Under the pieces are notes generated by a model. It searched no databases. It worked only from the letters and a program-made list of their open reading frames with translations, and was not told the origin of the DNA. This document shows, one piece after another, positions 1,620 through 13,323 of a stretch of DNA of 30,664 nucleotides (within the stretch, counting starts at the first letter, position 1; each line of letters starts with the position of its first letter). The translations under genes and the position numbers were made by a program. This stretch comes from an uncultured Dehalococcoidales bacterium (GTDB lineage Bacteria; Chloroflexota; Dehalococcoidia; GIF9; AB-539-J10). The DNA lies in contig CAYHBC010000004.1 in NCBI GenBank assembly GCA_964354775.1, positions 1-30,664 of the forward strand. Reading direction: 5' to 3'.

Positions 1620-2936
1620 ATGCAGCGCAAGGAAAGTCAACCCCGCCTCATCCAGGCGATGAGGGACATATTTATGCTGCCTGACCTGAGGCGAAAGATT
1701 CTTTTTACCTTCGGCATTCTGGTGGTCTTCCGGTTTATAGCTCATATTCCCCTGCCCGGCGTAGACCTTGCTGCGCTGGGTGAACTTTTCGCGCAAAACC
1801 AGCTCTTTGGCATGCTCGACCTCTTCAGCGGCGGTGCGATGAGGAATTTCAGCGTTGCTACCATGGGGGTCTACCCCTACATCACCTCCTCGATAATCAT
1901 GCAGCTACTGGTCCCGGTCATTCCCAACCTCCAGGCTCTATCCCGGGAGGGAGAAGCCGGGCGGCGGAAAATCAACCAGATTACCCACCTGCTGACCATA
2001 CCCCTGGCAGCTCTGCAGGGCTACGGCATGCTGGTCATACTGCAGAGCCAGCGAATTGCGATTGTAGGACTCCTTGAGCCGATGACCGTCGTGACCGTGG
2101 TAATCTCCATGACTGCGGGCACAATGTTCCTCATCTGGCTGGGCGAATTAATCACCGAGAGGGGCATTGGAAACGGTATATCAATAATAATCTTTGCCGG
2201 TATAATTGCCGGGCTGCCCACGATGCTCGGGGAGGGGATTGTAGCGGCGGAAAACCGGATAGGGCTGGTCGGTTTTATCCTAATCTGGTTAATTACCCTG
2301 GGATTTATCGTGGCGTTCATCGAGGCACACCGCCGTATCCCGGTGCAATATGCCCGCACCTCTTTCCGCAGCGGACGCATGTATCGGCAGTCGGGCTCAA
2401 CCTACATTCCCCTCAGGGTAAACACTGCGGGAATGATTCCCCTTATCTTCGCCCTTGCCATAGTGACGCTCCCGGCGACGATTGCCAGCTACTTCGCCAA
2501 CCCGACAAACCCCAACTTCGCCAACACGCTGATGAATGTTTTCAGCCCCGATGCCGCTCCCCCCACGGGACTGGTCTACTGGGGACTATTCTTTTTGTTT
2601 ACCATGGGCTTTACTTTCTTCTATACCATAGTAATATTTGAACAGATGGGTCTGGCTAAGAGGTTGCAGGAGCAGGGCGGCTTTGTCCCCGGCATTCGCC
2701 CCGGGAAGGCGACGGGCGATTATCTGGACCATGTTATCCGTCATATCACCTTTGGCGGTGCCCTCTCCCTGGGACTGGTGGCAATCATGCCTTTCATCGC
2801 CAAGGAGCTCACCGGTATCGCGGTATTAACCGTTTCTAGCATGGCTATGCTCATAGTTGTCGGGGTGTGCCTGGATACTATGAAGCAGATGGAAGCCCAG
2901 TTGACGATGCGCCGCTACGAGGGCTTTTTGAGGTAA
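1620..2936 (+). CDS. secY: Preprotein translocase subunit SecY
   Basis: Multiple TM segments; MGVYPYITSSIIMQLL, WLGELITERGIGNGISIIIFAGI, IPLRVNTAGMIPLIFA, FVPGIRPG motifs. Confidence 0.98.
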   Translation: MQRKESQPRLIQAMRDIFMLPDLRRKILFTFGILVVFRFIAHIPLPGVDLAALGELFAQNQLFGMLDLFSGGAMRNFSVATMGVYPYITSSIIMQLLVPVIPNLQALSREGEAGRRKINQITHLLTIPLAALQGYGMLVILQSQRIAIVGLLEPMTVVTVVISMTAGTMFLIWLGELITERGIGNGISIIIFAGIIAGLPTMLGEGIVAAENRIGLVGFILIWLITLGFIVAFIEAHRRIPVQYARTSFRSGRMYRQSGSTYIPLRVNTAGMIPLIFALAIVTLPATIASYFANPTNPNFANTLMNVFSPDAAPPTGLVYWGLFFLFTMGFTFFYTIVIFEQMGLAKRLQEQGGFVPGIRPGKATGDYLDHVIRHITFGGALSLGLVAIMPFIAKELTGIAVLTVSSMAMLIVVGVCLDTMKQMEAQLTMRRYEGFLR

Positions 2937-2939
2937 GAG

Positions 2940-3593
2940 ATGTATATCATTATGCTGGGTGCTCCGGGAGCCGGCAAAGGGACGCAGGCGGATATTATCG
3001 CCGACGAGATGAGTCTGCCCCATATCGCTTCAGGCAACCTGCTCCGGGAGGCAGTGGAAAAAAAAACCGCGCTGGGCTTGTCAGCCCAGTCCTATATGGA
3101 CCGGGGGAAGTTGGTTCCCGATGAGATAATCATCAAGATGATTTTGCAAAGGATTGAGCTGCCCAACCGTGCCTCCGGCGGTGTTTTCGACGGCTTTCCC
3201 CGGACGCTGTCGCAGGCTGAAGCGCTGGACAAAGGGCTTGGCAATAAAGGCAAGCATATTGACAAGGCGGTATATATCAATGTCTCCCAGAAAGAGCTTT
3301 TGAAGCGACTTACCGGACGCTGGCTCTGCCGCAACTGCCAGACCCCCTACCATCAGGTAACTGCCCCGCCCCGGGTAGCCGGGAAATGCGATAAATGCGG
3401 TGGCGAATTATACCAGCGAGAGGATGATAAGGAAGAGACCATCAAAGAGCGGTTGAAGGTTTTCTTTGCCCAGACCGTTCCCATAATAGACTATTACCGC
3501 AAGCAGAATAAGCTTATTGAGGTTAATGGCAACCAGGGAATAACGGAGGTGGCGGGAGAACTGAAGAAGGCGATGCGGGGGAAGGCAAAGTAA
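2940..3593 (+). CDS. adk: Adenylate kinase (long, Zn-binding LID)
   Basis: P-loop GAPGAGKGTQA, DGFPRT, LID CRNC...CDKC, QREDD. Confidence 0.97.
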   Translation: MYIIMLGAPGAGKGTQADIIADEMSLPHIASGNLLREAVEKKTALGLSAQSYMDRGKLVPDEIIIKMILQRIELPNRASGGVFDGFPRTLSQAEALDKGLGNKGKHIDKAVYINVSQKELLKRLTGRWLCRNCQTPYHQVTAPPRVAGKCDKCGGELYQREDDKEETIKERLKVFFAQTVPIIDYYRKQNKLIEVNGNQGITEVAGELKKAMRGKAK

Positions 3594-3599
3594 TTCTGA

Positions 3600-4340
3600 A
3601 TGATAATCGTGAAGTCTTCCCAGGAGATAGCCATTATGCGTCAAAGTGGTAAAATCTTAGCGGCGATACTGGAAAGGTTGAGAAAAGAGATACGAGCGGG
3701 AATTAACACCGGCTATCTGGATAAAATTATGGCTGATGAGGCAAAAAGGCGGAAAGTCAAGCCCTCTTTCAAAGGCTACCAGGGCTTTCCCGCTAACCTG
3801 TGTGTTTCGGTGAACGATGAGATAGTCCATGGCATCCCCGGGGAGCGAGTGCTGCGGGAGGGGGACATTGTTTCCCTGGACGTCGGAGTTATTTTTAACG
3901 GCTTCCACTCCGATGCCGCCATCACCGTTGGCGTGGGGAAGATAAGTCGCCAGGCGGGGAAACTCCTGGCGGCTACTGAAAAGAGCTTACAACTCGGCAT
4001 TGCCAGGGCTAAGCCCCGGGCTCACCTTGGCGATATATCCGTGGCAATACAGGACTATGTTGAATCGCAGGGATTTTCCGTGGTCCGGGAATATTCAGGA
4101 CACGGGATAGGTCGAGACCTGCATGAAGAGCCCCAGGTCCCTAATTTTGCTTTCGGGAAAGGTCCCTTGCTGCGCCGGGGTATGACCCTGGCTATTGAGC
4201 CTATGGTCAATACCGGCGACTGGCGCACCAGGCTGGCGCCTAACCAGTGGACGGTGCTGACCGCTGACGGGAGCCTTTCAGCCCATTTCGAGCACACCAT
4301 CGCCATTACCGACGGTGAGGCTGAAATACTCACTGAGTAA
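3600..4340 (+). CDS. map: Methionine aminopeptidase type I
   Basis: [39 protein letters not shown] metal-ligand motifs. Confidence 0.97.
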
Positions 4341-4342
4341 AT

Positions 4343-4561
4343 ATGGCTAAGAAGGAAAGAATAGAGGTTGAAGGCAAGGTAATTGCGTGTCTACCCAATA
4401 CCATGTTTCGCGTTGAATTGACTAAGGGGCACATAGTGCTGGCGCACATCTCCGGCAGAATGAGGAAGCATTACATCAAGATATTACCGGGAGACAGGGT
4501 GCTGGTGGAGCTTTCCCCTTACGATTTGAGCCGGGGGAGGGTTACCTACCGGCTGGAGTAG
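4343..4561 (+). CDS. infA: Translation initiation factor IF-1
   Basis: [46 protein letters not shown]. Confidence 0.98.
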
Positions 4562-4578
4562 GACTTTTGGGGACTTTT

Positions 4579-4607
4579 TTGACAAGCCCAGGATGCTTGC
4601 TTATAAT
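4579..4607 (+). promoter_or_regulatory. Perfect-consensus sigma70-type promoter upstream of rpmJ (alpha-operon promoter)
   Basis: TTGACA (4579-4584), 17 bp, TATAAT (4602-4607) in the 72-bp infA-rpmJ gap. Confidence 0.85.
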
Positions 4608-4633
4608 GTAATTTTGTTTTAATATCAATCTAT

Positions 4634-4747
4634 ATGAAAGTAAGTGCTTCAGTTAAGCCGCGCTGCAGTAGGTGCAAAGTTGTTCGCCGGAAAGGCGTCA
4701 TCAGGGTCATTTGCCCTAATCCGCGGCACAAGCAAAGGCAGGGTTAG
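4634..4747 (+). CDS. rpmJ: 50S ribosomal protein L36 (Zn-ribbon, C+ form)
   Basis: Hand translation [37 protein letters not shown] (37 aa; below the ORF-track cutoff). Confidence 0.97.
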
Positions 4748-4758
4748 CAAGTCAGGCA

Positions 4759-5148
4759 ATGGCACGCATCGCTGGAGTGGACCTTCCCAAGGGAAAACCG
4801 ATTAAAGTAGGGCTGCAATATATTTATGGTATCGGCCCTACATCAAGTCAGCGGATTTTGACTGTTGCCGGGGTTGAGCCGAATATTAGAGTTAAAGACC
4901 TTACCGAGGAGCAGGTCGCTCAGCTTCGTGATGTCATCGGCAAGCAATATAAAGTGGAGGGTGAGCTTAGACGAGAAATCCAGTCCAACATAAGGCAGCT
5001 AATTGAAATCGGTAGCTGGCGCGGCACCCGGCATCGTATGAACCTGCCCGCTCATGGACAAAGAACACGCACCAATGCCCGCACCAAGAAGGGTCCCCGA
5101 AAAACAGTGGCGGGCAGAGGACAAAAACGGGGCTTGAGTAAGAAGTAA
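4759..5148 (+). CDS. rpsM: 30S ribosomal protein S13
   Basis: [46 protein letters not shown]. Confidence 0.98.
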
Positions 5149-5150
5149 AA

Positions 5151-5543
5151 ATGCCCAAGAAGAAAAAAGGCAGAGCAAGGAAAAGGACACATCGCGGAGT
5201 TAGCGAAGGAAGGGTCTATATTCAGTCCACCTTCAATAACACCGTGGTCACCATCACCGATTTGAAAGGCGATGTTATTTCCTGGGGGAGCTCAGGGAGC
5301 ACTGGCTTTAAGGGCTCCCGGAAGGGCACCCCTTACGCCGCTCAGCTAGCGGCTCGGGAGGCGGCACGGCAGGCAATAAGCGATGGTCTGCGGCAAGTCG
5401 AAGTCTACATCAAAGGACCCGGCAGTGGACGGGAGGCGGCTATTCGCACATTGCAGGCTTCAGGGCTCATCGTTACCAGCATTAGGGATGTAACCCCCAT
5501 TCCTCACAACGGGTGTCGTCCGCCTAAGAAGAGAAGGGTATAA
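5151..5543 (+). CDS. rpsK: 30S ribosomal protein S11
   Basis: [50 protein letters not shown]. Confidence 0.98.
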
Positions 5544-5544
5544 T

Positions 5545-6177
5545 ATGGCGCGCTATACCGGACCTTCCTGTCGTATGTGCCGCTATCTCGGTGAGAAGCT
5601 GATGCTTAAGGGGGAGAAATGCGCCACCCCCAAGTGTCCTCTGGAACGGAAAAACAAGCCTCCGGGGGAACACGCTGTTGGGGGACGCCCCCGGAGAGTC
5701 TCAGAACGAGGGCTTCAGTTGCGTGAAAAGCAGAAAATTCGCTTCAGCTACGGGATGCTGGAGCGGCAGTTTCGCCGCTTCTTTGCCCGAGCACAGAAGA
5801 CGAAGGGCGCTACCGGTGAGACCATGCTGGTATTGCTGGAGAGACGGCTGGACAATGTGGTCTATCGCCTGGGATTTGGCAGCTCCCGCAGCCAGGCAAG
5901 GCAGGTGGTCCGACATGGTCACATACTCGTTAACGACCATAAAGTAAATATACCTTCCTACCTGGTTCGCCAGGGAGATAGCCTTAAATGGCGCAAAGGC
6001 AGCACCAAAACCGAGTACTATAAGAGGATAGCAGGGGAAATTGAGACCAGGATTATCCCCCCCTGGCTGAGCCTGGATAAAGAAAAGATGATAGGCGAGG
6101 TCTTAGCCCTGCCCGATAAGGAGACCCTTGATGCTAAATTCGATGGAAAAGTTGTCGTTGAATACTACTCCAGATGA
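5545..6177 (+). CDS. rpsD: 30S ribosomal protein S4 (Zn-binding form)
   Basis: MARYTGPSCRMCR, QLREKQK, LERRLDNVVYRLGF, ARQVVRHGH, VVEYYSR. Confidence 0.98.
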   Translation: MARYTGPSCRMCRYLGEKLMLKGEKCATPKCPLERKNKPPGEHAVGGRPRRVSERGLQLREKQKIRFSYGMLERQFRRFFARAQKTKGATGETMLVLLERRLDNVVYRLGFGSSRSQARQVVRHGHILVNDHKVNIPSYLVRQGDSLKWRKGSTKTEYYKRIAGEIETRIIPPWLSLDKEKMIGEVLALPDKETLDAKFDGKVVVEYYSR

Positions 6178-7147
6178 CTCGGTTAAATTACCCGTTCCCA
6201 GCGTCAAGTGCATTGAGACCGTAGGCAATTACGGGAGGTTTCTGGCTGAGCCGCTGGAGCCAGGGTTCGGCATCACCCTGGGCAATGCTCTTCGCCGTGT
6301 GCTGCTCAGCTCCCTGCCTGGCGCTGCGGTGACCTGGGTTAGAATTGATGGTATTCAACATGAATTCTCCCCTCTTCCTCATGTTAAAGAGGATGTCATT
6401 GACTTTTTGTTGAATGTTAAACAGATAAGGTTCCGCCCCCTTACCCAGCAGCCAGGCAGGCTGACTCTCGACGCCGCCGGGGAGGGCGAAGTTCGTGCCG
6501 CCGACATTGCGCCGTCGGCAGATTTTGAGATTGCCAATCCTGAACTCCACCTGGCTACCCTGGACTCCTCTGAAGCTAAGCTCCACGTCGAGCTTAATGT
6601 GGATTTAGGCCGGGGATACTTACCGGCAAGACCCGCCAACGACCTCCCCCTGGGAGCAATATCAATAGATTCTATATTCACGCCGGTGCACAAGGTCAAC
6701 TTTTCCGACGAGCCCGTCTACCCGGGAAGGGAGAGGAGCCCGGAGAGGCTCACCCTGGAGGTCTGGACCGATAACACCATTTCTCCCAGCAAGGCTGTTA
6801 GCCTGGCTACCGCCATCCTGGTCAAGCAGTTTTCTCCCTTCCATGAGCTTATTCCACTGGAGGCGGAAAAGGAAGCTGAGGAGGTCAAAAGCGTGCTCCC
6901 CGAGGGTATTCAATTTGATACTCCTATTGAGAAATTAGGGCTGTCCGCCCGTAGCTGCAACAGCCTGGCTAAAGGGGGAATCTTTGTCTTATCGCAGCTT
7001 ATCGAGAAGACCAAGGAAGGGCTGCCATCGCTGCCGGGACTGGGAGCGAAATCTCAAAGAGAGGTAGCTGAACTGTTGGAAAACCTCGGCTTCCCGGCAG
7101 TCGAGAAGTCCCGAAAGCGAAAAAGGGGAAAAGAGGATGAGGCATAA
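6158..7147 (+). CDS. rpoA: RNA polymerase subunit alpha (start codon uncertain)
   Basis: [43 protein letters not shown], alpha-CTD LSARSCN..L / LGAKS. In-frame starts exist only inside rpsD (TTG 6128, ATG 6131, ATG 6143, TTG 6152, TTG 6158); the nearest one is given. Confidence 0.95.
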
Positions 7148-7490
7148 AGTAGCCGGGCGGGGGTTAAGCCGACCGACAGGTCACCGCTGGGCGTTATACC
7201 GGAACCAGGTATCAGACCTCTTAGCTTACGGGAAAATTACCACTACCGAGGCTAAAGCCAGAGAGGTTCGCAGTCTCGCTGAGAAAATGATTACCCTGGG
7301 GAAAGAGGGTAGCCTTGCTTCAAGACGCCGTGCCCTGGCTTTTGCCACCGACAAAAAGGTGGTGGAAAAGCTCTTTGCCGAGATTGCCCCGATGTATGCC
7401 GAGCGCTCTGGGGGCTACATCCGGATAATCAAGCTGGGACCGCGCCCTGGCGATAATGCCCCTTTAGTGCAGCTCCAACTGATTAAGTAG
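7137..7490 (+). CDS. rplQ: 50S ribosomal protein L17
   Basis: [34 protein letters not shown]. Confidence 0.98.
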
Positions 7491-8254
7491 TGACTCCAGT
7501 CAAGTATGTTTTAGTTATAGAATATGAAGGAACGAAGTATCACGGTTTTCAATGGCAGCTCGGACTGCCTACCATTCAAGATGAGCTGGAAAAAGCCATC
7601 AGGAAGTTTTGCCCCAAGAGCAGTCGGGTTATGGCAGCAAGCAGGACCGATAGCGGCGTGCACGCCAGAGGGCAGGTGGTGAGCTTCTTTGCCGAGTGCG
7701 ACTTATCTCCGATGACGACGATGAAGGCACTAAATTATCATCTCCCCGGGGATATCGCTGTGAAGGCAGCTTACCGGGCTGACGCTGATTTTAATGTCCG
7801 GAGAGACGCTTTGAGCCGGGAATACTGCTACTACATCTTGAATAGCATTCCTCGCTCTCCACTCAGGGAAGGATTTGCGTTACATATCCCTCAAGCGCTG
7901 GAGGTAAAGCTGATGAACGATGCCTGCCAGCTTATTCTTGGCCAGCATGATTTCACCTCCTTTGCCGCCTTCCTGGGGAATTCCAGGAGTGCCCTGCGCA
8001 CTGTTTATGAAGCTGAGGTTATCCGAAAAGAGGCTGTGGTTACCTTCCGGATGACTGCCGATTCCTTCCTGCCGCACCAGGTGCGTAATACCGTGGGACT
8101 ATTAATCCGGCTGGGACTAAAAAAAGTGGGGCTGGAGTATTTTCAGGAGGTTATGGAGGCGAAAATTCCCGGACTGGCTGGGCCGAGGGCTCCCGCCTGG
8201 GGACTGTGCCTGAACAGGGTCAATTATGCTAAGCCTTTAGGAGTTCAGCAATGA
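7490..8254 (+). CDS. truA: tRNA pseudouridine(38-40) synthase TruA
   Basis: IEYEGTKYHGFQ, catalytic SRTDSGVHA, FLPHQVR, APAWGLCL; GTG start. Confidence 0.96.
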   Translation: MTPVKYVLVIEYEGTKYHGFQWQLGLPTIQDELEKAIRKFCPKSSRVMAASRTDSGVHARGQVVSFFAECDLSPMTTMKALNYHLPGDIAVKAAYRADADFNVRRDALSREYCYYILNSIPRSPLREGFALHIPQALEVKLMNDACQLILGQHDFTSFAAFLGNSRSALRTVYEAEVIRKEAVVTFRMTADSFLPHQVRNTVGLLIRLGLKKVGLEYFQEVMEAKIPGLAGPRAPAWGLCLNRVNYAKPLGVQQ

Positions 8255-8688
8255 GGACTTACAGCCCCAGCGCCAGGGATATTACCCGGGAGTGGCATGT
8301 AGTCGATGCCAACGGGCAGGTTCTGGGCCGGCTGGCATCCCGGGTAGCCCGGCTGCTGATGGGCAAGCATAAACCAGGTTATACCCCCCATCTTGACACC
8401 GGCGACTATGTTATAGTAATTAACGCTGCTAAGGTGAGAATTTCCGGTAAAAAAGCTAAACAGAAGATTTACTATCGTCATTCGGGGTACCCCGGGGGTC
8501 TGCGCAGCCAGACCTTTGAGAAGCTGTTCGCCGCCAGTCCCACCCGCGTGGTTGAGATAGCCGTCAGGGGAATGCTGCCCAAGAACCGCCTGGGCAGAGC
8601 AATGTTTAAGAAGCTCAGGGTCTATCCCGAGAGCGACCATCCTCACCATATCCAGACTGAGGCAAAGGAGAAGCAAGCTAATGACTAA
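8251..8688 (+). CDS. rplM: 50S ribosomal protein L13
   Basis: [44 protein letters not shown]. Confidence 0.98.
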
Positions 8689-9076
8689 GCAAACTTATGT
8701 CTGGGGCACGGGAAAGCGCAAGTGTGCCATAGCGCAGGTCAGACTTTTTCCCGGTGAGGGAAAAGTGCTCGTCAACGGTAAGCCTTACCAGGAGTTTTTC
8801 CCCCGCCTGCTCCACCGTCGTTACATCGAGAGCCCTTACCAGGTTACCGGGACCAGCGGTAAGTATGACGCCACGGTGAAGGTGACCGGCGGTGGACTGA
8901 GCGGTCAGGCTGAAGCTATTCGTCATGGCATTGCCCGGGCTTTAGTTAAGGAGAATGAGTCGTTCAAGCCTCTGCTGCGGCAGGGATGCCTGCTTACCCG
9001 CGATGCCAGGATTAAAGAGCGCAAGAAGTATGGTCTTAAACGAGCCCGTAAGGCGCCGCAATACACCAAGCGTTAA
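8681..9076 (+). CDS. rpsI: 30S ribosomal protein S9
   Basis: [55 protein letters not shown]. Confidence 0.98.
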
Positions 9077-9094
9077 CCCCTGACAGGGTAAATA

Positions 9095-9124
9095 TTGACA
9101 GCGGTCTACGAGATTAGCTACAAT
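9095..9124 (+). promoter_or_regulatory. sigma70-type promoter of the CetZ-like gene
   Basis: TTGACA (9095-9100), 18 bp, TACAAT (9119-9124); ATG follows 8 nt later and there is no Shine-Dalgarno sequence. Confidence 0.7.
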
Positions 9125-9132
9125 AATAATAA

Positions 9133-10305
9133 ATGAAACTGCTAGTTCTAGGTCTGGGGCAGTGTGGCGGTAGGATTGCGGATAAGTTTGCGCGGCTGAA
9201 CAAGAGGGCGCAGGCGCTACGGGGAATTGACATAATCGTCGATGCCTTTGCCATTAACACCGATGTTGCCGATTTAAGCGGACTAATCCATGTCCCGGCG
9301 GATTATAAGCATAGAATTATCGTTGGGGGACGAAAGGCAAGTGGACACGGAGTAGGCAAGATAAGCGAGCTTGGCGCTGAGATAGCGCACGAAGATAGCG
9401 ATAAGATTGTAGACGCGATAAGAACGGCGCAACGGTTCCCCGAGACCGACGCCTTTTTGCTGATTGCCGGCGCTTCCGGGGGCACAGGCTCCGGAGCAAT
9501 AGGGGTATTAACCCAACACTTGAGAGAGCGATATGCTGGTAAACCGCTTTACAATCTCCTCGTTCTACCTTTTCAGCAGGAGGAAACGACGGAAACAAGA
9601 ACCATATATAACACCGCCGTATGCCTTAAATCAGCTTATCTGGTGGCTGATGCCATATTCCTCGTCGATAACCAGAGGTATATTGAGAAAAGCGCCTCCA
9701 TCTCGGAGAACCTCGCCCGGATTAATGCCCGGATAGTTGAGCCATTTTACAATTTACTCTGCGCTGGTGAAGAGATAAGACCGAAATATGTCGGGGCAAA
9801 GGTGCTCGACGCCGGAGATATAATACAGACTGCGGTAGGCTGGACAGTAATCGGCGAGGGTAAATCGTTGCTCTCCAGAAAGAAGTTCCCCTTTGAAAAG
9901 ACACGCCATTTCCGGAATAAGGAGGCGGAGACCAATAAAGGGGCTCACGCTATGGACAAAGCCCTGAGCGAGCTGTCATTGGCCTGTAATACTAAAGAGG
10001 CAAGGAGGGCTCTCTATCTCCTCTCGGCACCACCCCAGGAAATGAATATGGAGATAATCAAGGAGCTTGGAGAGAACCTGAGAGCAGTAGCCCCGGATGC
10101 CTTGATACGGAGTGGTGACTACCCCAGACCAAAAGGTTCGCTGGAGGTTACCGTAATTCTCTCTGAAATTCTGGCTCTGCGCAAAGTTACCGCCTACTTC
10201 AGCAAGGCGCTGGAGCTGATTTCTACTATGAAAGCGCGACGGGGAGTCCAATACGCCGGTAGAGAACTTGAGGAAATGTTCGGCGATATTCCGGTGTTAC
10301 TGTAA
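9133..10305 (+). CDS. Tubulin/FtsZ-superfamily GTPase, CetZ (archaeal FtsZ3)-like rather than canonical FtsZ
   Basis: GLGQCGGRIA (T1), AINT..ADL, GHGVG...ELGAEIAHED (T3), AGASGGTGSG (signature loop), LVLP..E, LVDN, INARIV..F..L.CAGE, VLDAGDIIQT (T7). These match the CetZ pattern (GQAGG, GHGVG..NELGAEIAEED, L.GAGE, VVDSSEIINT), not the FtsZ pattern (GGGGGN, GLGAG, INLDFADV). Confidence 0.85.
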   Translation: MKLLVLGLGQCGGRIADKFARLNKRAQALRGIDIIVDAFAINTDVADLSGLIHVPADYKHRIIVGGRKASGHGVGKISELGAEIAHEDSDKIVDAIRTAQRFPETDAFLLIAGASGGTGSGAIGVLTQHLRERYAGKPLYNLLVLPFQQEETTETRTIYNTAVCLKSAYLVADAIFLVDNQRYIEKSASISENLARINARIVEPFYNLLCAGEEIRPKYVGAKVLDAGDIIQTAVGWTVIGEGKSLLSRKKFPFEKTRHFRNKEAETNKGAHAMDKALSELSLACNTKEARRALYLLSAPPQEMNMEIIKELGENLRAVAPDALIRSGDYPRPKGSLEVTVILSEILALRKVTAYFSKALELISTMKARRGVQYAGRELEEMFGDIPVLL

Positions 10306-10327
10306 TCAGCCCCGCTTAATTCCTTCT

Positions 10328-10834
10328 TTATCGTCGGCTCTTGGTAAATATCAGCCAGGTCTGTCCCATAGCCTCATTGTGGGCTTCCCAGGCTTTCTGT
10401 TCCGCTTCCTCAAGGTTTCTTAGCGCCTGCATGGCGCTTTCCTCATGGACCTTCCTCGCTCGCTCCTCAGCTTCTTCCCTGATTCTCAATGCCTGGGCGA
10501 TGCTCTCCCCATAGGCCTTCCTCGCTCGCTCCTCAGCTTCCTCCCTGATTCTCAATGCCTGGGCGATGCTCTCCCCATAGGCCTTCCTCACCTGCTCCTT
10601 GACCTGCTGGTAGGCTTTTCCCGTTTGCTGTTCCTGGTCTTTATAAGCGTCATCTACCTGGCGTTGAGCCTCCAGGTAGGCGGTGTAAGCCATCGTGGCG
10701 CGCTGTTGAATTTCATCAAGGGGAAGGACTACTGGGGGAGGGGCACTCTGCCTGGCTTTCCTGGCGCCCTTCTGGGGTGGCTGTCCCGCCTCTTCTTCAT
10801 TTGCCGCAAAATCTTGCTCTTTTGGGTCAGACAT
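10328..10834 (-). CDS. Hypothetical 168-aa helical protein with 11/22-residue repeats
   Basis: Strong SD (AAGGAGG) upstream of ATG; disordered Pro-rich N-terminus, then a helical region with AY recurring at 11/22-residue spacing; no TM segment. Confidence 0.8.
   Translation of the reverse strand: MSDPKEQDFAANEEEAGQPPQKGARKARQSAPPPVVLPLDEIQQRATMAYTAYLEAQRQVDDAYKDQEQQTGKAYQQVKEQVRKAYGESIAQALRIREEAEERARKAYGESIAQALRIREEAEERARKVHEESAMQALRNLEEAEQKAWEAHNEAMGQTWLIFTKSRR
10450..10589. repeat. Near-perfect 66-bp in-frame tandem duplication (about 2.1 copies, one mismatch)
   Basis: 10450-10515 is repeated at 10516-10581 (plus 8 bp). It encodes RKAYGESIAQALRIREEAEERA twice; a degenerate third copy follows in the protein. 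Confidence 0.95.
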
Positions 10835-10856
10835 AATATACCTCCTTCGCTCTTAC

Positions 10857-13133
10857 CTACTTTTGACCTGTTTCATCACCCTCTTCTTCTTCCTCTTCCC
10901 CTTCCTCTTCCCCTTCCCCCTCCTCTTCTTCTTCTACTTCCTCAGCATGTTTATCCTTGTTAGCCGCATACATTTTAGCTAAGAAATCCAGACGCGCCTC
11001 AATTCCTCCGGGGGACTTCTTGGGCACCGCTCGCTCTTCCCCGCCACTACTTTCAGCCCCGGTCAGCATCTCCTCCAACGCCTCCGGCGAAATTTCACCA
11101 GCTTCCAGGGCTGGTTTTCTTATCTTAGCCGCCTCGCTTACCGATTTCTCAAATAGTTGCATCGCTGCTCTTACTGCGCTCCGGGCTGATTTGCTTATTC
11201 CCTCAGCCTTACTAAGCGCTTCCTCAAATGTCCTTACTGATGATATCACCGCCTCCCTGGCTACCCTTATTGATGCATCAGTAGCCTCCTTTGCCATTTG
11301 AGCTGATTCCTCGGCGCTTTGCCGGGCAGCCTGACTTATTTGCTCCGCCTTGCTTATTGCTTCCTGAGACGCCTTCTTCGTCTCCTCAGCAATCTTTTTG
11401 GTAGCCCGGCTTATTTCCTCCGCGCGGCTCACTACTTCCCGGGATGCTGCCTTCGCTTCTTCAGCAGTTCTGGCGTTAACCTTGCTTATTTCCTCCGCCC
11501 TGCTTATTGCTTCCCGGGAGGCTATCTTCGCTTCCTCAGCAACCTCTTTTGCCTCTCGCCCCACTCCCTCAGCTTTGCTTATTGCCTCCCGAGACGCCTT
11601 ATCCGCTCCTTCAGCGGTCCCTATCGCCATTTTACTCATTTCCTCCGCCCTGCTTATCGCTTTTTCAAACGAGCTTACCGACGCTTTAACGGTGGCTATC
11701 GCCCTTTGGCTTATTTCCTCGGCTCGGCTGACCCCTTCCTCAGTGGCTTTAGTTGATTTCTCCATCGCCACCATGGCTAATCTAATTGATTCTTCAGCCC
11801 GGCTTAGCGCTTCCTGAAATGTTTTTTGAGCTTCTTCGGTAGTTTCCAGGGCAGCCTGGCTTATCTCCTCCGTTCTGGCGACAGCCTCCTTGCTGGCCTG
11901 GCTGATTTCCTCAGCCCGGACGCTTGCCTCCTGTGAAATTCGCTTGGCTTCCTCCGCCCTATCCATAGCCCCTTGAGACACCCTCTTCGCTTCTTCGGCA
12001 GCCTCCACGCCTGCCTGGACTGCTGCCTCTGCTTTGCTCATAGCCTTTTGTGATGACTTTCGTGCTTCTTCAGCTTTGCTTATAGCCTCCTGGGATGCCT
12101 GCTTCGCTTCCGCAGCAACTTCCAGGCTCGCCTGGTTGATTTCTTCCGCTTTAGTGGTAGCCTCTTGAGCGGCAAGCATCGCTTCCGAAGCAGCCTCCAC
12201 AGCCGTCCGGCTCAATTCCTCGGCTCGAGCTATTGCCTCTTGAGATGCCTTCTTCGTTCTCCTAGCAGTTTCCAGGGCTGCCTGACTTACCTCTTCAGCC
12301 CTGGCTATTACCTCCTGGGATGTCTTTGCCGATGTCTCAGTAGTCTCTACCGCCCTTCGGCTTAGCACATCAGCTTGGCTTATCATCTCCCCTAATGTCT
12401 TTGTCGCTGCCTCAGACGCCTCCATAGCCGTTCGGCTGACTTTTCCAGCATTGCTTATTCCTTCCTTAGATGCCCTTGCCGCAGCATCAATTGCCTCCAT
12501 GGCTAAGGCGATTGATGCCTCAGCCCGGCTCATTGCTTCCTGGGATGTTCTTATCGCGGTATCGGCTGCCTCTCGGGACTCCTGGCTTATCCTTTCAGCC
12601 TCGCTTACCACTTGTTGTGATGCTGCTCGCGCTTCCTCAGCAGCTTCCCGGGCTATTTGACTTACTCGCTCAGCCTCCTCCAGCGCCTTCAATGAAGTCT
12701 CTTTCGCCTCTTCAGCAGTTCCCCGGGCAGACTGACTCACCTCATCGGCTTTGCTCACCCTCTCCAGGGATGCCTTTACCGCCGCCTCCAGTTTGCTTAC
12801 CGTTTCTTCAAAGGCCTTTGCCGAGGCTTCCGAAGCCTCGGTGGCGAGCTTGATTGACGCTTCAGCCCGGTCTACTGCTTCCCGGGATGCTTTTGTTGCT
12901 CCTTCAGCAATCTCCCTGGCTTCCTGGCTTACCCTCTCCGCCTCCCTTATCGCTTCCTCTAAGGTTCTCTTCGCTTCCTCGGCAATCTTTGTAGCTGCCT
13001 CTCCTGACTCCAAAGCTCTGATTAGCGCCTGCTGCGATATGCCGGTCGCTTCCTCAGCAACCTTCTCCGCCGCCCGCCTCATCGCCTCGGCTCTAGCTAC
13101 TGCCTCTTCAAATGTGCTGGTTTTGTTTCGCAT
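10857..13133 (-). CDS. Hypothetical 758-aa Ala/Glu/Ser-rich repetitive coiled-coil protein with an acidic C-terminal tail
   Basis: 2.3-kb uninterrupted ORF; ATG 13133 is preferred over GTG 13142; 25-residue periodicity; no Pro/Cys/Trp in the repeat region; no signal peptide or TM segment; poly-Glu tail. Confidence 0.85.
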   Translation of the reverse strand: MRNKTSTFEEAVARAEAMRRAAEKVAEEATGISQQALIRALESGEAATKIAEEAKRTLEEAIREAERVSQEAREIAEGATKASREAVDRAEASIKLATEASEASAKAFEETVSKLEAAVKASLERVSKADEVSQSARGTAEEAKETSLKALEEAERVSQIAREAAEEARAASQQVVSEAERISQESREAADTAIRTSQEAMSRAEASIALAMEAIDAAARASKEGISNAGKVSRTAMEASEAATKTLGEMISQADVLSRRAVETTETSAKTSQEVIARAEEVSQAALETARRTKKASQEAIARAEELSRTAVEAASEAMLAAQEATTKAEEINQASLEVAAEAKQASQEAISKAEEARKSSQKAMSKAEAAVQAGVEAAEEAKRVSQGAMDRAEEAKRISQEASVRAEEISQASKEAVARTEEISQAALETTEEAQKTFQEALSRAEESIRLAMVAMEKSTKATEEGVSRAEEISQRAIATVKASVSSFEKAISRAEEMSKMAIGTAEGADKASREAISKAEGVGREAKEVAEEAKIASREAISRAEEISKVNARTAEEAKAASREVVSRAEEISRATKKIAEETKKASQEAISKAEQISQAARQSAEESAQMAKEATDASIRVAREAVISSVRTFEEALSKAEGISKSARSAVRAAMQLFEKSVSEAAKIRKPALEAGEISPEALEEMLTGAESSGGEERAVPKKSPGGIEARLDFLAKMYAANKDKHAEEVEEEEEGEGEEEGEEEEEEGDETGQK
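11116..13112 (-). repeat. Degenerate coding repeat array: about 23 x 25 aa (75 bp) with four 14-aa units and one 22-aa unit
   Basis: Hand parsing, e.g. SREAISRAEEISKVNARTAEEAKAA / SREVVSRAEEISRATKKIAEETKKA / SQEAISKAEQISQAARQSAEESAQM. Confidence 0.85.
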
Positions 13134-13208
13134 ACCCTTCACCCTCGTGAGCCACTTAGTATTCTACTCCTTCTCCCCCTTATTTTACCAAAAACTCAAG
13201 CTCAATAG

Positions 13209-13282
13209 TGGGCCATTGTGGACTCGAACCACAGACCCCGGCCTTATCAGGACCGTGCTCTAACCAGCTGAGCTAATGGCCC
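13209..13282 (-). tRNA. tRNA-Ile (GAT), 3' CCA not encoded
   Basis: GGGCCAT acceptor stem, GCTC/GAGC D-stem, CGGTC-CTGATAA-GGCCG anticodon arm, TGTGG-TTCGAGT-CCACA T arm, ATGGCCC-A followed by CTA. Confidence 0.97.
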
Positions 13283-13293
13283 TTATCAACATA

Positions 13294-13323
13294 AATATAT
13301 CTTTCATTGCTAGGTAGTGTCAA
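13294..13323 (-). promoter_or_regulatory. sigma70-type promoter of tRNA-Ile
   Basis: Minus strand TTGACA (13323-13318), 18 bp, TATATT (13299-13294), 11 nt upstream of the tRNA. Confidence 0.65.

Follow-up and report, generated by a model that had tools for sequence, protein, structure and literature searches.

To our knowledge, the way in which wall-less, MreB-less Dehalococcoidia keep their shape has so far gone without explanation, and a locus in which a tubulin homologue adjoins two repetitive helical proteins raises the question of whether its products together form a cytoskeleton. The locus lies in a window of 30,664 nucleotides, the whole stretch of DNA analysed here, from the MAG of an uncultured Dehalococcoidia bacterium from freshwater sediment that the genome collection's taxonomy places in a different order from Dehalococcoides. 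According to the ORF listing, rpsI (8681-9076, plus strand) is followed on the same strand by a gene for a CetZ-type tubulin-superfamily GTPase of 390 aa (9133-10305). Facing it on the minus strand are a gene for a 168-aa protein (10328-10834) and, beyond that, a gene for a long all-alpha protein of 758 aa (10857-13133), directly upstream of which lies tRNA-Ile(GAT) (13208-13282, minus strand). The same listing bears out the 22 bp separating the convergent stops of the CetZ-like gene and the minus-strand pair, an arrangement that precludes co-transcription of the CetZ-like and long genes. A promoter-like site in the gap between rpsI and the CetZ-like gene (9095-9124, plus strand; TTGACA-18-TACAAT, 11/12 matches) suggests that the latter has a promoter of its own, while the tRNA is possibly co-transcribed with the long gene from a second such site ahead of it (13294-13323, minus strand); the first site is a consensus match only. 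All three proteins lack transmembrane segments, as was initially noted: the highest Kyte-Doolittle value over a 19-residue window is 1.48 in the CetZ-like protein, 0.19 in the small one and 0.76 in the long one.

The family assignment of the GTPase is straightforward. The 390-aa protein scores 105 bits for the Pfam Tubulin domain (PF00091; cut-off 33) and 58.1 bits for CetZ_C (PF21011; cut-off 21.6), the latter over model positions 3-179 of 180, whereas the FtsZ equivalog model TIGR00065 scores 45 bits, below its cut-off of 295. Its best solved relatives are Haloferax volcanii CetZ structures (4B46, 1.4e-42; 4B45, 1.5e-25), followed by 3ZID (1.3e-15), the best FtsZ structure (7e-10) and gamma-tubulin (about 2e-7), which upholds the description of the protein as a CetZ-like tubulin homologue. 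The T1 loop reads GQCGG, and the GGTGSG G-box at residues 116-121 is invariant from G116 to G121 among 23 orthologues, as are the acidic T7 residues D226 and D229. In the T7 region VLDAGDIIQT aligns with VVDSSEIINT of CetZ, D229 standing opposite the Glu. Since all nucleotide-binding loops and the T7 acidic residues are kept, polymerisation is to be expected, and GTPase activity is likewise presumed from what is known of the family. A true FtsZ is encoded on another contig beside FtsA, and the CetZ-like gene lies outside the context of a division cluster. The gene itself is not new: an earlier study (Santana-Molina et al. 2023; PMC9871819) lists CetZ-like proteins of Chloroflexota-Dehalococcoidia, its tree setting them apart from canonical CetZ in groups termed CetZ-like, and the Dehalococcoides mccartyi copies are named 'Tubulin-like protein CetZ' in UniProt. 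What can still be called undescribed, the term applied to the locus as a whole by the initial annotation, is the long partner and the module.

The long open reading frame can also be read from a GTG at 13142 (10857-13142, 761 aa), a numbering that we retain for residues of its C-terminus. Homologues align from residue 2-4 of that reading and a GAGG stands 9 nt upstream of the ATG at 13133, so the protein probably starts at this ATG. Its 25-residue periodicity is genuine, with a lag-25 identity of 0.349 against 0.122 in shuffled sequence and harmonics at 50, 75 and 100. The rod region (11103-13112, minus strand) consists of a 25-residue unit (11+14) repeated about 27 times, hydrophobic residues (Ala included) recur with a period of 3.56 = 25/7, and Pro accounts for 0.5% of the whole protein. 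In an AlphaFold monomer model (pLDDT 62) the fold is all-alpha; the helices run to 84-132 residues, and an isolated one at 714-738 follows a disordered linker. The modelled chain folds back on itself with low confidence, hence the geometry of the rod is only loosely fixed and the fold-back points were not accepted as domain boundaries. Matching of the repeat to a filament lattice is not claimed either: 25 residues span about 37 Å as a helix, whereas subunits of FtsZ/CetZ-type filaments are spaced at about 43 Å.

Both the long and the small protein are rich in Ala, Glu, Ser and Lys and contain 11-residue sub-repeats, as would befit LEA-, phasin- or apolipoprotein-like helical proteins of a general hydrophilic kind, retained beside cetZ by mere descent, in which case the adjacency would carry no functional meaning. 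The convergent orientation, which is not that of one operon, fits such a view, and in one cluster of the protein Atlas 12% of members do carry Phasin_2. This is the sole trace of such families; the Atlas was otherwise uninformative, no LEA, phasin or apolipoprotein profile in Pfam or NCBIfam scored above cut-off for either coil protein, and neither protein has any other family match above cut-off in these two collections. Furthermore, the part of the long protein that is conserved is not the repeats. It is a terminal helix (I714-K738; 10929-11003, minus strand), followed by an acidic Glu-rich tail (10860-10928, minus strand) and retained in proteins that range in length from 441 to 900 aa. The helix has the motif R-[LM]-x-x-L-x-x-M-[YF], with the core IEARLDFLAKMYAANK in the source protein; R717 and L721 never vary in the homologue alignment, and M724 hardly does.

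The tie between the CetZ-like gene and the long one goes well beyond shared gene order. A survey for conserved linkage and co-occurrence of the CetZ-like and long genes was positive: the convergent pair is present in 29 genomes from seven Dehalococcoidia families, with 16 genomes of family f1 and further cases in f4, f18, f50, f65, f71 and f73, of which f50 holds Dehalococcoides mccartyi and Dehalogenimonas. The pair persists although its flanks are unrelated in every lineage, being rpsI and tRNA-Ile here and RlmN, RNase H/DinB, Usp, ECF sigma or L-PSP elsewhere. In a tree of 64 non-archaeal CetZ-like proteins, all 25 coil-adjacent ones fall into one clade (support 100/99), and every member of that clade has the long-protein neighbour. 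Conversely, among the genomes searched the long protein was found only beside a CetZ-like gene of this clade. A profile of its C-terminus yielded strong matches (E < 1e-10) in 13 of 201 genomes of the class, each adjoining a CetZ-like gene, and none in about 260 genomes of other Chloroflexota classes; against 1.84 billion representatives it gave 124 matches, mostly short C-terminal fragments without context. A search for related loci with the CetZ-like protein alone had returned four. Absence is coupled as strictly as presence: neither the coil-linked clade nor the partner was found in families f2, f3 and f5, and within the genus Dehalogenimonas two genomes (G151 and G483) carry neither. Together with the predicted binding and the clade-specific interface residues described below, these patterns make a meaningless adjacency highly improbable.

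A complex model supports binding between the CetZ-like protein and the C-terminal 100 residues of the long one; it scores 0.83 against 0.01 for the best of three controls, a gap that may be widened by the controls having been run without family alignments. Of 80 solved complexes, 58 attain the mark used, as do 2 of 110 mismatched pairs; since we supplied our own alignments, these counts are only approximate for the present case. The partner's own pLDDT in the complex is about 50, and only 31-58% of contacts are common to three runs. The contacts fall on the conserved helix motif. On the GTPase the predicted groove is lined by K166, Y169, L170 and V171, by residues 347-357 (the final helix of the globular part) and by the tail F-x-D-I-P-[VS]-L-L at the protein's C-terminus. 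The 17 predicted interface residues include three of the seven residues specific to the coil-linked clade, namely L170, F356 and F383 (hypergeometric p=0.002), and position 353 is T or M in this clade where all other paralogs have R or K. The tail helix of the long protein is predicted to dock onto the CetZ-like protein, at an interface that this enrichment supports independently.

That the interface takes in the extreme end of the GTPase (residues 379-390) allows a different reading of the same contact. The terminal peptide F-G-D-I-P-V-L-L (residues 383-390; 10279-10302, plus strand) resembles an FtsZ C-terminal peptide, that of the genome's own FtsZ being LLDAPSFL, and with FtsA present in the genome the long protein could be a regulator that clamps the D-I-P-x-L-L peptide and blocks, or competes with, FtsA or a membrane anchor, and in this way sets where or when CetZ filaments attach. 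Coiled-coil regulators of FtsZ are well established, EzrA and MinC partners among them, which lends the proposal a precedent. Still, a rod within a protein of 441-900 residues exceeds the needs of a simple inhibitor, and the same peptide is kept in other CetZ paralogs that have no such coil partner. We regard a purely regulatory role as unlikely, albeit the least unlikely of the alternatives weighed here.

The 168-aa protein occupies a different position. Its 22-residue repeats are as real as those of its larger neighbour (lag-22 identity 0.349 against 0.083; hydrophobic period 3.67) and are encoded by a 66-bp tandem duplication (10436-10589, minus strand; TRF, 2.3 copies, 94% match). A disordered stretch (residues 1-38) precedes a single unbroken helix, modelled for residues 39-167 with pLDDT > 90 and showing an 11/22-residue periodicity. 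Conserved features are a ladder of tyrosines (Y50, Y53, Y64 and Y75) and a C-terminal W-x-I-F-T-K-S-R-K; one may speculate that this aromatic, basic end binds membrane or protein. A homologue search returned only three relatives, by a word-based method that is weak on repeat proteins. The gene is confirmed in f1 and f71, out of the two or three families in which it was found, and there stands between the long gene and cetZ; this limited distribution is the reason for considering the product an accessory. Of the three-gene module proposed at the outset, the CetZ-like/long pair is conserved, and the small protein is confirmed beside it only in these two families.

The small protein's terminus is also reminiscent of TubY, a coiled-coil protein with a basic, amphipathic, membrane-binding C-terminal tail (PMC7762940), and TubZ stands near CetZ in phylogeny (PMC9871819). 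The locus might accordingly be read as a tubulin-based system for segregating DNA or cargo, with no part in shape. We consider this most improbable: in no lineage is the pair accompanied by a TubR-like or HTH gene or by centromere-like repeats, no DNA-binding domain was detected in either coiled-coil protein with Pfam and NCBIfam, and the genes are chromosomal and vertically conserved over seven families.

We therefore favour, with reasonable though far from complete confidence, a cytoskeletal unit of two components, joined in some lineages by a third; the CetZ-like and long proteins probably belong to one such unit because they are always paired and the tail helix is predicted to dock. In this scheme the CetZ-like protein would be the GTP-binding, polymerising tubulin-superfamily component. 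The long protein would provide a rod of about 670 helical residues leading through a flexible linker to the conserved amphipathic helix, which would sit in the hydrophobic groove of the GTPase, and ending in the acidic tail. Rods of this kind normally oligomerise; assuming that this one does, each would present at least two CetZ-binding heads, and such multi-headed rods could serve as cross-linkers or scaffolds of CetZ filaments, or as tethers between the filaments and some other structure. The single-helix protein, encoded in the same operon as the long gene, would be an accessory.

The cellular role would most likely be the organisation of envelope or shape, or a division-related one, in cells without detectable genes for peptidoglycan synthesis or MreB. 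The premise of a wall-less host agrees with the genome, in which, at a completeness of 95.7%, no transpeptidase (PF00905), FtsW/RodA (PF01098) or true MreB was found. A more specific proposal, that coil-linked CetZ and rod make up a submembrane tubulin-based skeleton responsible for the disc or irregular coccoid form of Dehalococcoidia that have neither wall nor MreB, is possible but distinctly tentative. In D. mccartyi the abundance of a tubulin-like protein (tubulin/GTPase btf_0551) has been linked to disc versus barrel morphology (PMC8163811). The locus number suggests the other paralog, found in a GAPDH-cetZ context, so the change probably does not concern the coil clade and is not counted as support.

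Our literature searches turned up no report of a binding partner for any CetZ-type tubulin, archaeal CetZ included. The present analysis names a partner family, a docking motif and interface residues. The submembrane skeleton, if real, would be the first instance of a filament-binding protein dedicated to a CetZ-type tubulin, and a bacterial equivalent of microtubule-associated proteins. The module occurs in cultured Dehalococcoides mccartyi and Dehalogenimonas, important organisms in bioremediation, and with the motif and residues named, cultured carriers at hand and Dehalogenimonas genomes that lack both genes, the hypothesis is directly testable.

Several known systems share part of this design. 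One is archaeal CetZ (Haloferax volcanii CetZ1/CetZ2; 4B46, 4B45), with which the GTPase shares the Tubulin and CetZ_C domains in a full-length alignment (E 1.4e-42), the conserved G-box and T7 acidic residue, and hosts that lack a murein wall and are disc-like in shape. It differs in being bacterial and a member of the CetZ-like groups outside canonical CetZ (PMC9871819), in its FtsZ-like terminal D-I-P-x-L-L peptide and in its dedicated coiled-coil neighbour. TubZ-TubR-TubY also combines a CetZ-related tubulin with a coiled-coil accessory whose basic, amphipathic tail is C-terminal (PMC7762940), but here there is no TubR, HTH domain or centromere, the genes sit on the chromosome and pass down vertically, and the rod is far longer than TubY. 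As in the case of FtsZ with ZapA/ZapB, EzrA and SepF, a tubulin-superfamily filament would be modulated by helical or coiled-coil proteins through short terminal peptides; unlike in those systems, a conserved docking peptide is carried at this locus by the accessory as well as by the tubulin homologue, the long protein has no sequence similarity to the Zap and EzrA families, and the genome encodes a separate, true FtsZ-FtsA pair. Finally, the long protein resembles crescentin, FilP and Scy in its predicted form, a repetitive all-alpha rod without enzymatic domains. These proteins act as shape scaffolds, and Scy and FilP have non-heptad periodicities; the long protein is set apart from them by its 25-residue (25/7) period and the lack of sequence homology, and crescentin, FilP and Scy are not known to be paired with a tubulin homologue. 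The locus would add a further case to the theme of a tubulin homologue with a coiled-coil accessory, alongside FtsZ with Zap and EzrA, TubZ with TubY, and tubulin with its MAPs.

The three genes lie between rpsI (8681-9076, plus strand) and a minus-strand tRNA-Ile(GAT) gene (13208-13282). The CetZ-like gene (9133-10305, plus strand, 390 aa) converges on two minus-strand genes, which encode a small protein of 168 aa (10328-10834) and a long protein that spans 10857-13142 and 761 aa when read from a GTG codon. For the long gene the ATG at 13133 is the most likely start, because homologue alignments begin at residue 2-4 of the GTG reading and a GAGG sits 9 nt upstream of that ATG; this bears out the 758 aa of the initial annotation. 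No TM-like segments were found in any of the three proteins. Promoter-like sites, recognised by consensus match only (11 of 12 positions each), occur just before the CetZ-like gene (9095-9124, plus strand) and just before the tRNA gene (13323-13294, minus strand). The tRNA gene itself precedes the long gene, also on the minus strand, by 65-74 bp; given the promoter-like site in front of it, all three minus-strand genes, from the tRNA to the small protein, may be transcribed as one unit, which would yield a tRNA-mRNA co-transcript.

The plus-strand product is a CetZ-type tubulin homologue. At 105 bits for Tubulin and 58 bits for CetZ_C it exceeds both Pfam cut-offs, and it stays below that of the FtsZ equivalog model (45 bits against 295). 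Among solved structures it is closest to those of Haloferax CetZ, matched over the full length (4B46, 1.4e-42), compared with ~1e-10 at best for FtsZ structures, and its G-box and T7 acidic residues are invariant across orthologues. CetZ-like proteins of Chloroflexota-Dehalococcoidia have already been noted (Santana-Molina et al. 2023, PMC9871819), and the CetZ neighbourhood survey by Brown and Duggin covered archaea only (PMC9856176). Literature searches turned up neither a coiled-coil partner nor any other binding partner of CetZ.

Both minus-strand products are repetitive. The 25-mer repeats initially ascribed to the long protein are evident as an identity of 0.349 at lag 25, where the background is 0.122; there are sub-lags of 11 and 14, and the hydrophobic period is 3.56 (25/7). 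The 25-residue period is retained in the homologues of other families, more weakly in Dehalogenimonas, and lags 11 and 14 rather than 25 lead in Dehalococcoides. A single-sequence AlphaFold model (pLDDT 62) predicts helix throughout, with an isolated helix at 714-738 (761-aa numbering) after a disordered linker, followed by an acidic tail. Across lineages the rod varies from 441 to 900 residues, and the C-terminal helix is kept in all of them as [I/M]-x-x-R-[L/M]-x-x-L-x-x-M-[Y/F], with R717 and L721 unchanged throughout and M724 almost so; a variable rod with a conserved terminal helix is what a docking peptide on a tether would be expected to show. As for the 11/22-mer repeats suggested for the small protein, a 22-residue period was confirmed, encoded by a 66-bp tandem repeat that is 94% identical. 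Its model, from a 19-sequence alignment, predicts a disordered N-terminus and a single unbroken helix at 39-167 (pLDDT >90), and a Tyr ladder and a W-x-I-F-T-K-S-R-K end are conserved.

Across 40 relatives, a close orthologue of the CetZ-like gene occurs together with the small and long genes. In the window's family, f1, 15 genomes have the three side by side in an identical convergent order, one of them (G003) on a contig that stops short of the long gene. The CetZ-like and long genes are also paired in families f4, f18, f50 (Dehalococcoides mccartyi and Dehalogenimonas, as identical proteins are named), f65 and f71, always convergent and 9-91 bp apart, and in f73 across a wider gap of 456 bp, which is similar in size to the small gene. 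All samples taken together, 29 genomes from seven families have the pair side by side, amid housekeeping genes that are unrelated from lineage to lineage, and it is highly improbable that such synteny is without meaning. Of the three-gene module proposed at the outset, the CetZ-like/long pair stands, with the small protein as an accessory whose presence is confirmed in f1 and f71 alone. At one f71 locus (L064 in G229, 3452-9208) all three genes lie within 6 kb of one contig together with another CetZ-like gene; this additional copy is followed by an AAA+ protein with only a weak MgsA-like match, and the corresponding protein at the D. mccartyi locus L067 is DnaX by Pfam.

The phyletic pattern couples the two genes further. 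In a maximum-likelihood tree of 64 CetZ-likes and FtsZ, all 25 coil-adjacent CetZ-likes fall in one clade (support 100/99), no member of which is without a long-gene neighbour. Of 201 genomes sampled from the class, 13 gave strong matches (E <1e-10) to a profile built from the last ~90 residues of the long protein, each match directly adjoining a CetZ-like gene; when 301 genomes from across the phylum were sampled, matches were confined to Dehalococcoidia. Neither the coil-linked clade nor the long partner was found in families f2, f3 and f5, and within Dehalogenimonas two genomes (G151, G483) lack both genes and four others have both.

Structure prediction points to direct binding, as the initial annotation had envisaged. 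Modelled from genome-matched alignments with the C-terminal 100 residues of the long protein, the CetZ-like protein scored 0.83, against 0.01 for the best of three controls; 58 of 80 solved complexes and two of 110 mismatched pairs attained the mark, counts that are only rough because our own alignments were used. In this model the fold of the partner is uncertain, and 31-58% of contacts are common to three runs. The confident contacts of the long protein (I714, R717-L718, L721-H732) are exactly the conserved motif; those of the CetZ-like protein are K166, Y169-V171, 347-357 and the C-terminal 379-390. The predicted docking site finds independent support in clade-specific residues: seven positions hold a residue that is shared by 85% or more of the coil-linked clade and by <15% of the other paralogs, and three of these (L170, F356 and F383, where the paralogs have Ser, Tyr and Ala) belong to the 17 interface residues (p=0.002). 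Position 353 is Thr or Met in place of the Arg or Lys of all other paralogs. It is Thr in f1 and Met in f18, f50 and f65, and the partner motif shifts from R-L-D-F-L to R-[LM]-[ED]-[IMAY]-L between the same groups, which may reflect co-variation at a predicted contact, confounded by phylogeny as a single split. Contacts at the C-terminus would also suit a long protein that regulates CetZ by masking its FtsZ-like terminal peptide; we regard this as unlikely, and favour docking of a scaffold.

Across the CetZ-likes of Dehalococcoidia, that peptide (10279-10302 in the window) takes the form D-I-P-[VS]-L-L or [DG]-L-P-[ST]-L-I, compared with LLDAPSFL in the FtsZ of the window's own genome, and it could be a contact for FtsA or some other shared anchor. 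It also ends the other CetZ-like clades, except for a few divergent copies (two of three in tandem at locus L075 and the one at L083) and a third clade (100/99) arranged as AMMECR1, CetZ-like and MgsA (AAA+) at L044-L050 in f2, f3 and f5, which has no D-I-P-x-L-L. The L075 genes (G049, f14; 2702-9003) lie directly downstream of an 864-aa TIG-domain protein, and two of the three have diverged strongly and sit on long branches. A second paralog occupies another context, conserved in families f2-f5 (L044-L059) and in the window's own genome (L002, contig C3, 266-3464): a TIG/Ig-like gene and the CetZ-like gene face a Terminase_6C gene and one for a ~115-aa helix-rich protein. In the own genome, short runs of N at 150-260 and 2290-2390 of L002 break the translation of this second CetZ-like gene. 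The TIG/Ig-like protein of the own genome has a hydrophobic C-terminal stretch, and the 455-aa terminase-large-subunit-like protein places a putative nuclease/ATPase beside a tubulin homologue.

The own genome is a 1.14-Mb freshwater-sediment MAG, 95.7% complete, in which a true FtsZ adjoining FtsA accompanies the second CetZ-like paralog. A PBP transpeptidase, FtsW/RodA and a true MreB were looked for in it and not detected, which fits the wall-less biology of cultured relatives; one putative Mur_ligase_M match is present. In such a cell the CetZ-like protein would polymerise, the long rod would oligomerise and cross-link or scaffold CetZ filaments, and the module may be linked to cell shape. 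A tubulin-like protein of D. mccartyi is abundant in disc-shaped and not in barrel-shaped cells (Kruse et al. 2021, PMC8163811), and is probably the other CetZ-like paralog. A coiled-coil accessory with a membrane-binding tail has its precedent in the tubulin-like system of TubY (PMC7762940); that the pair is itself a segregation device of the TubZ/TubY kind seems very unlikely.
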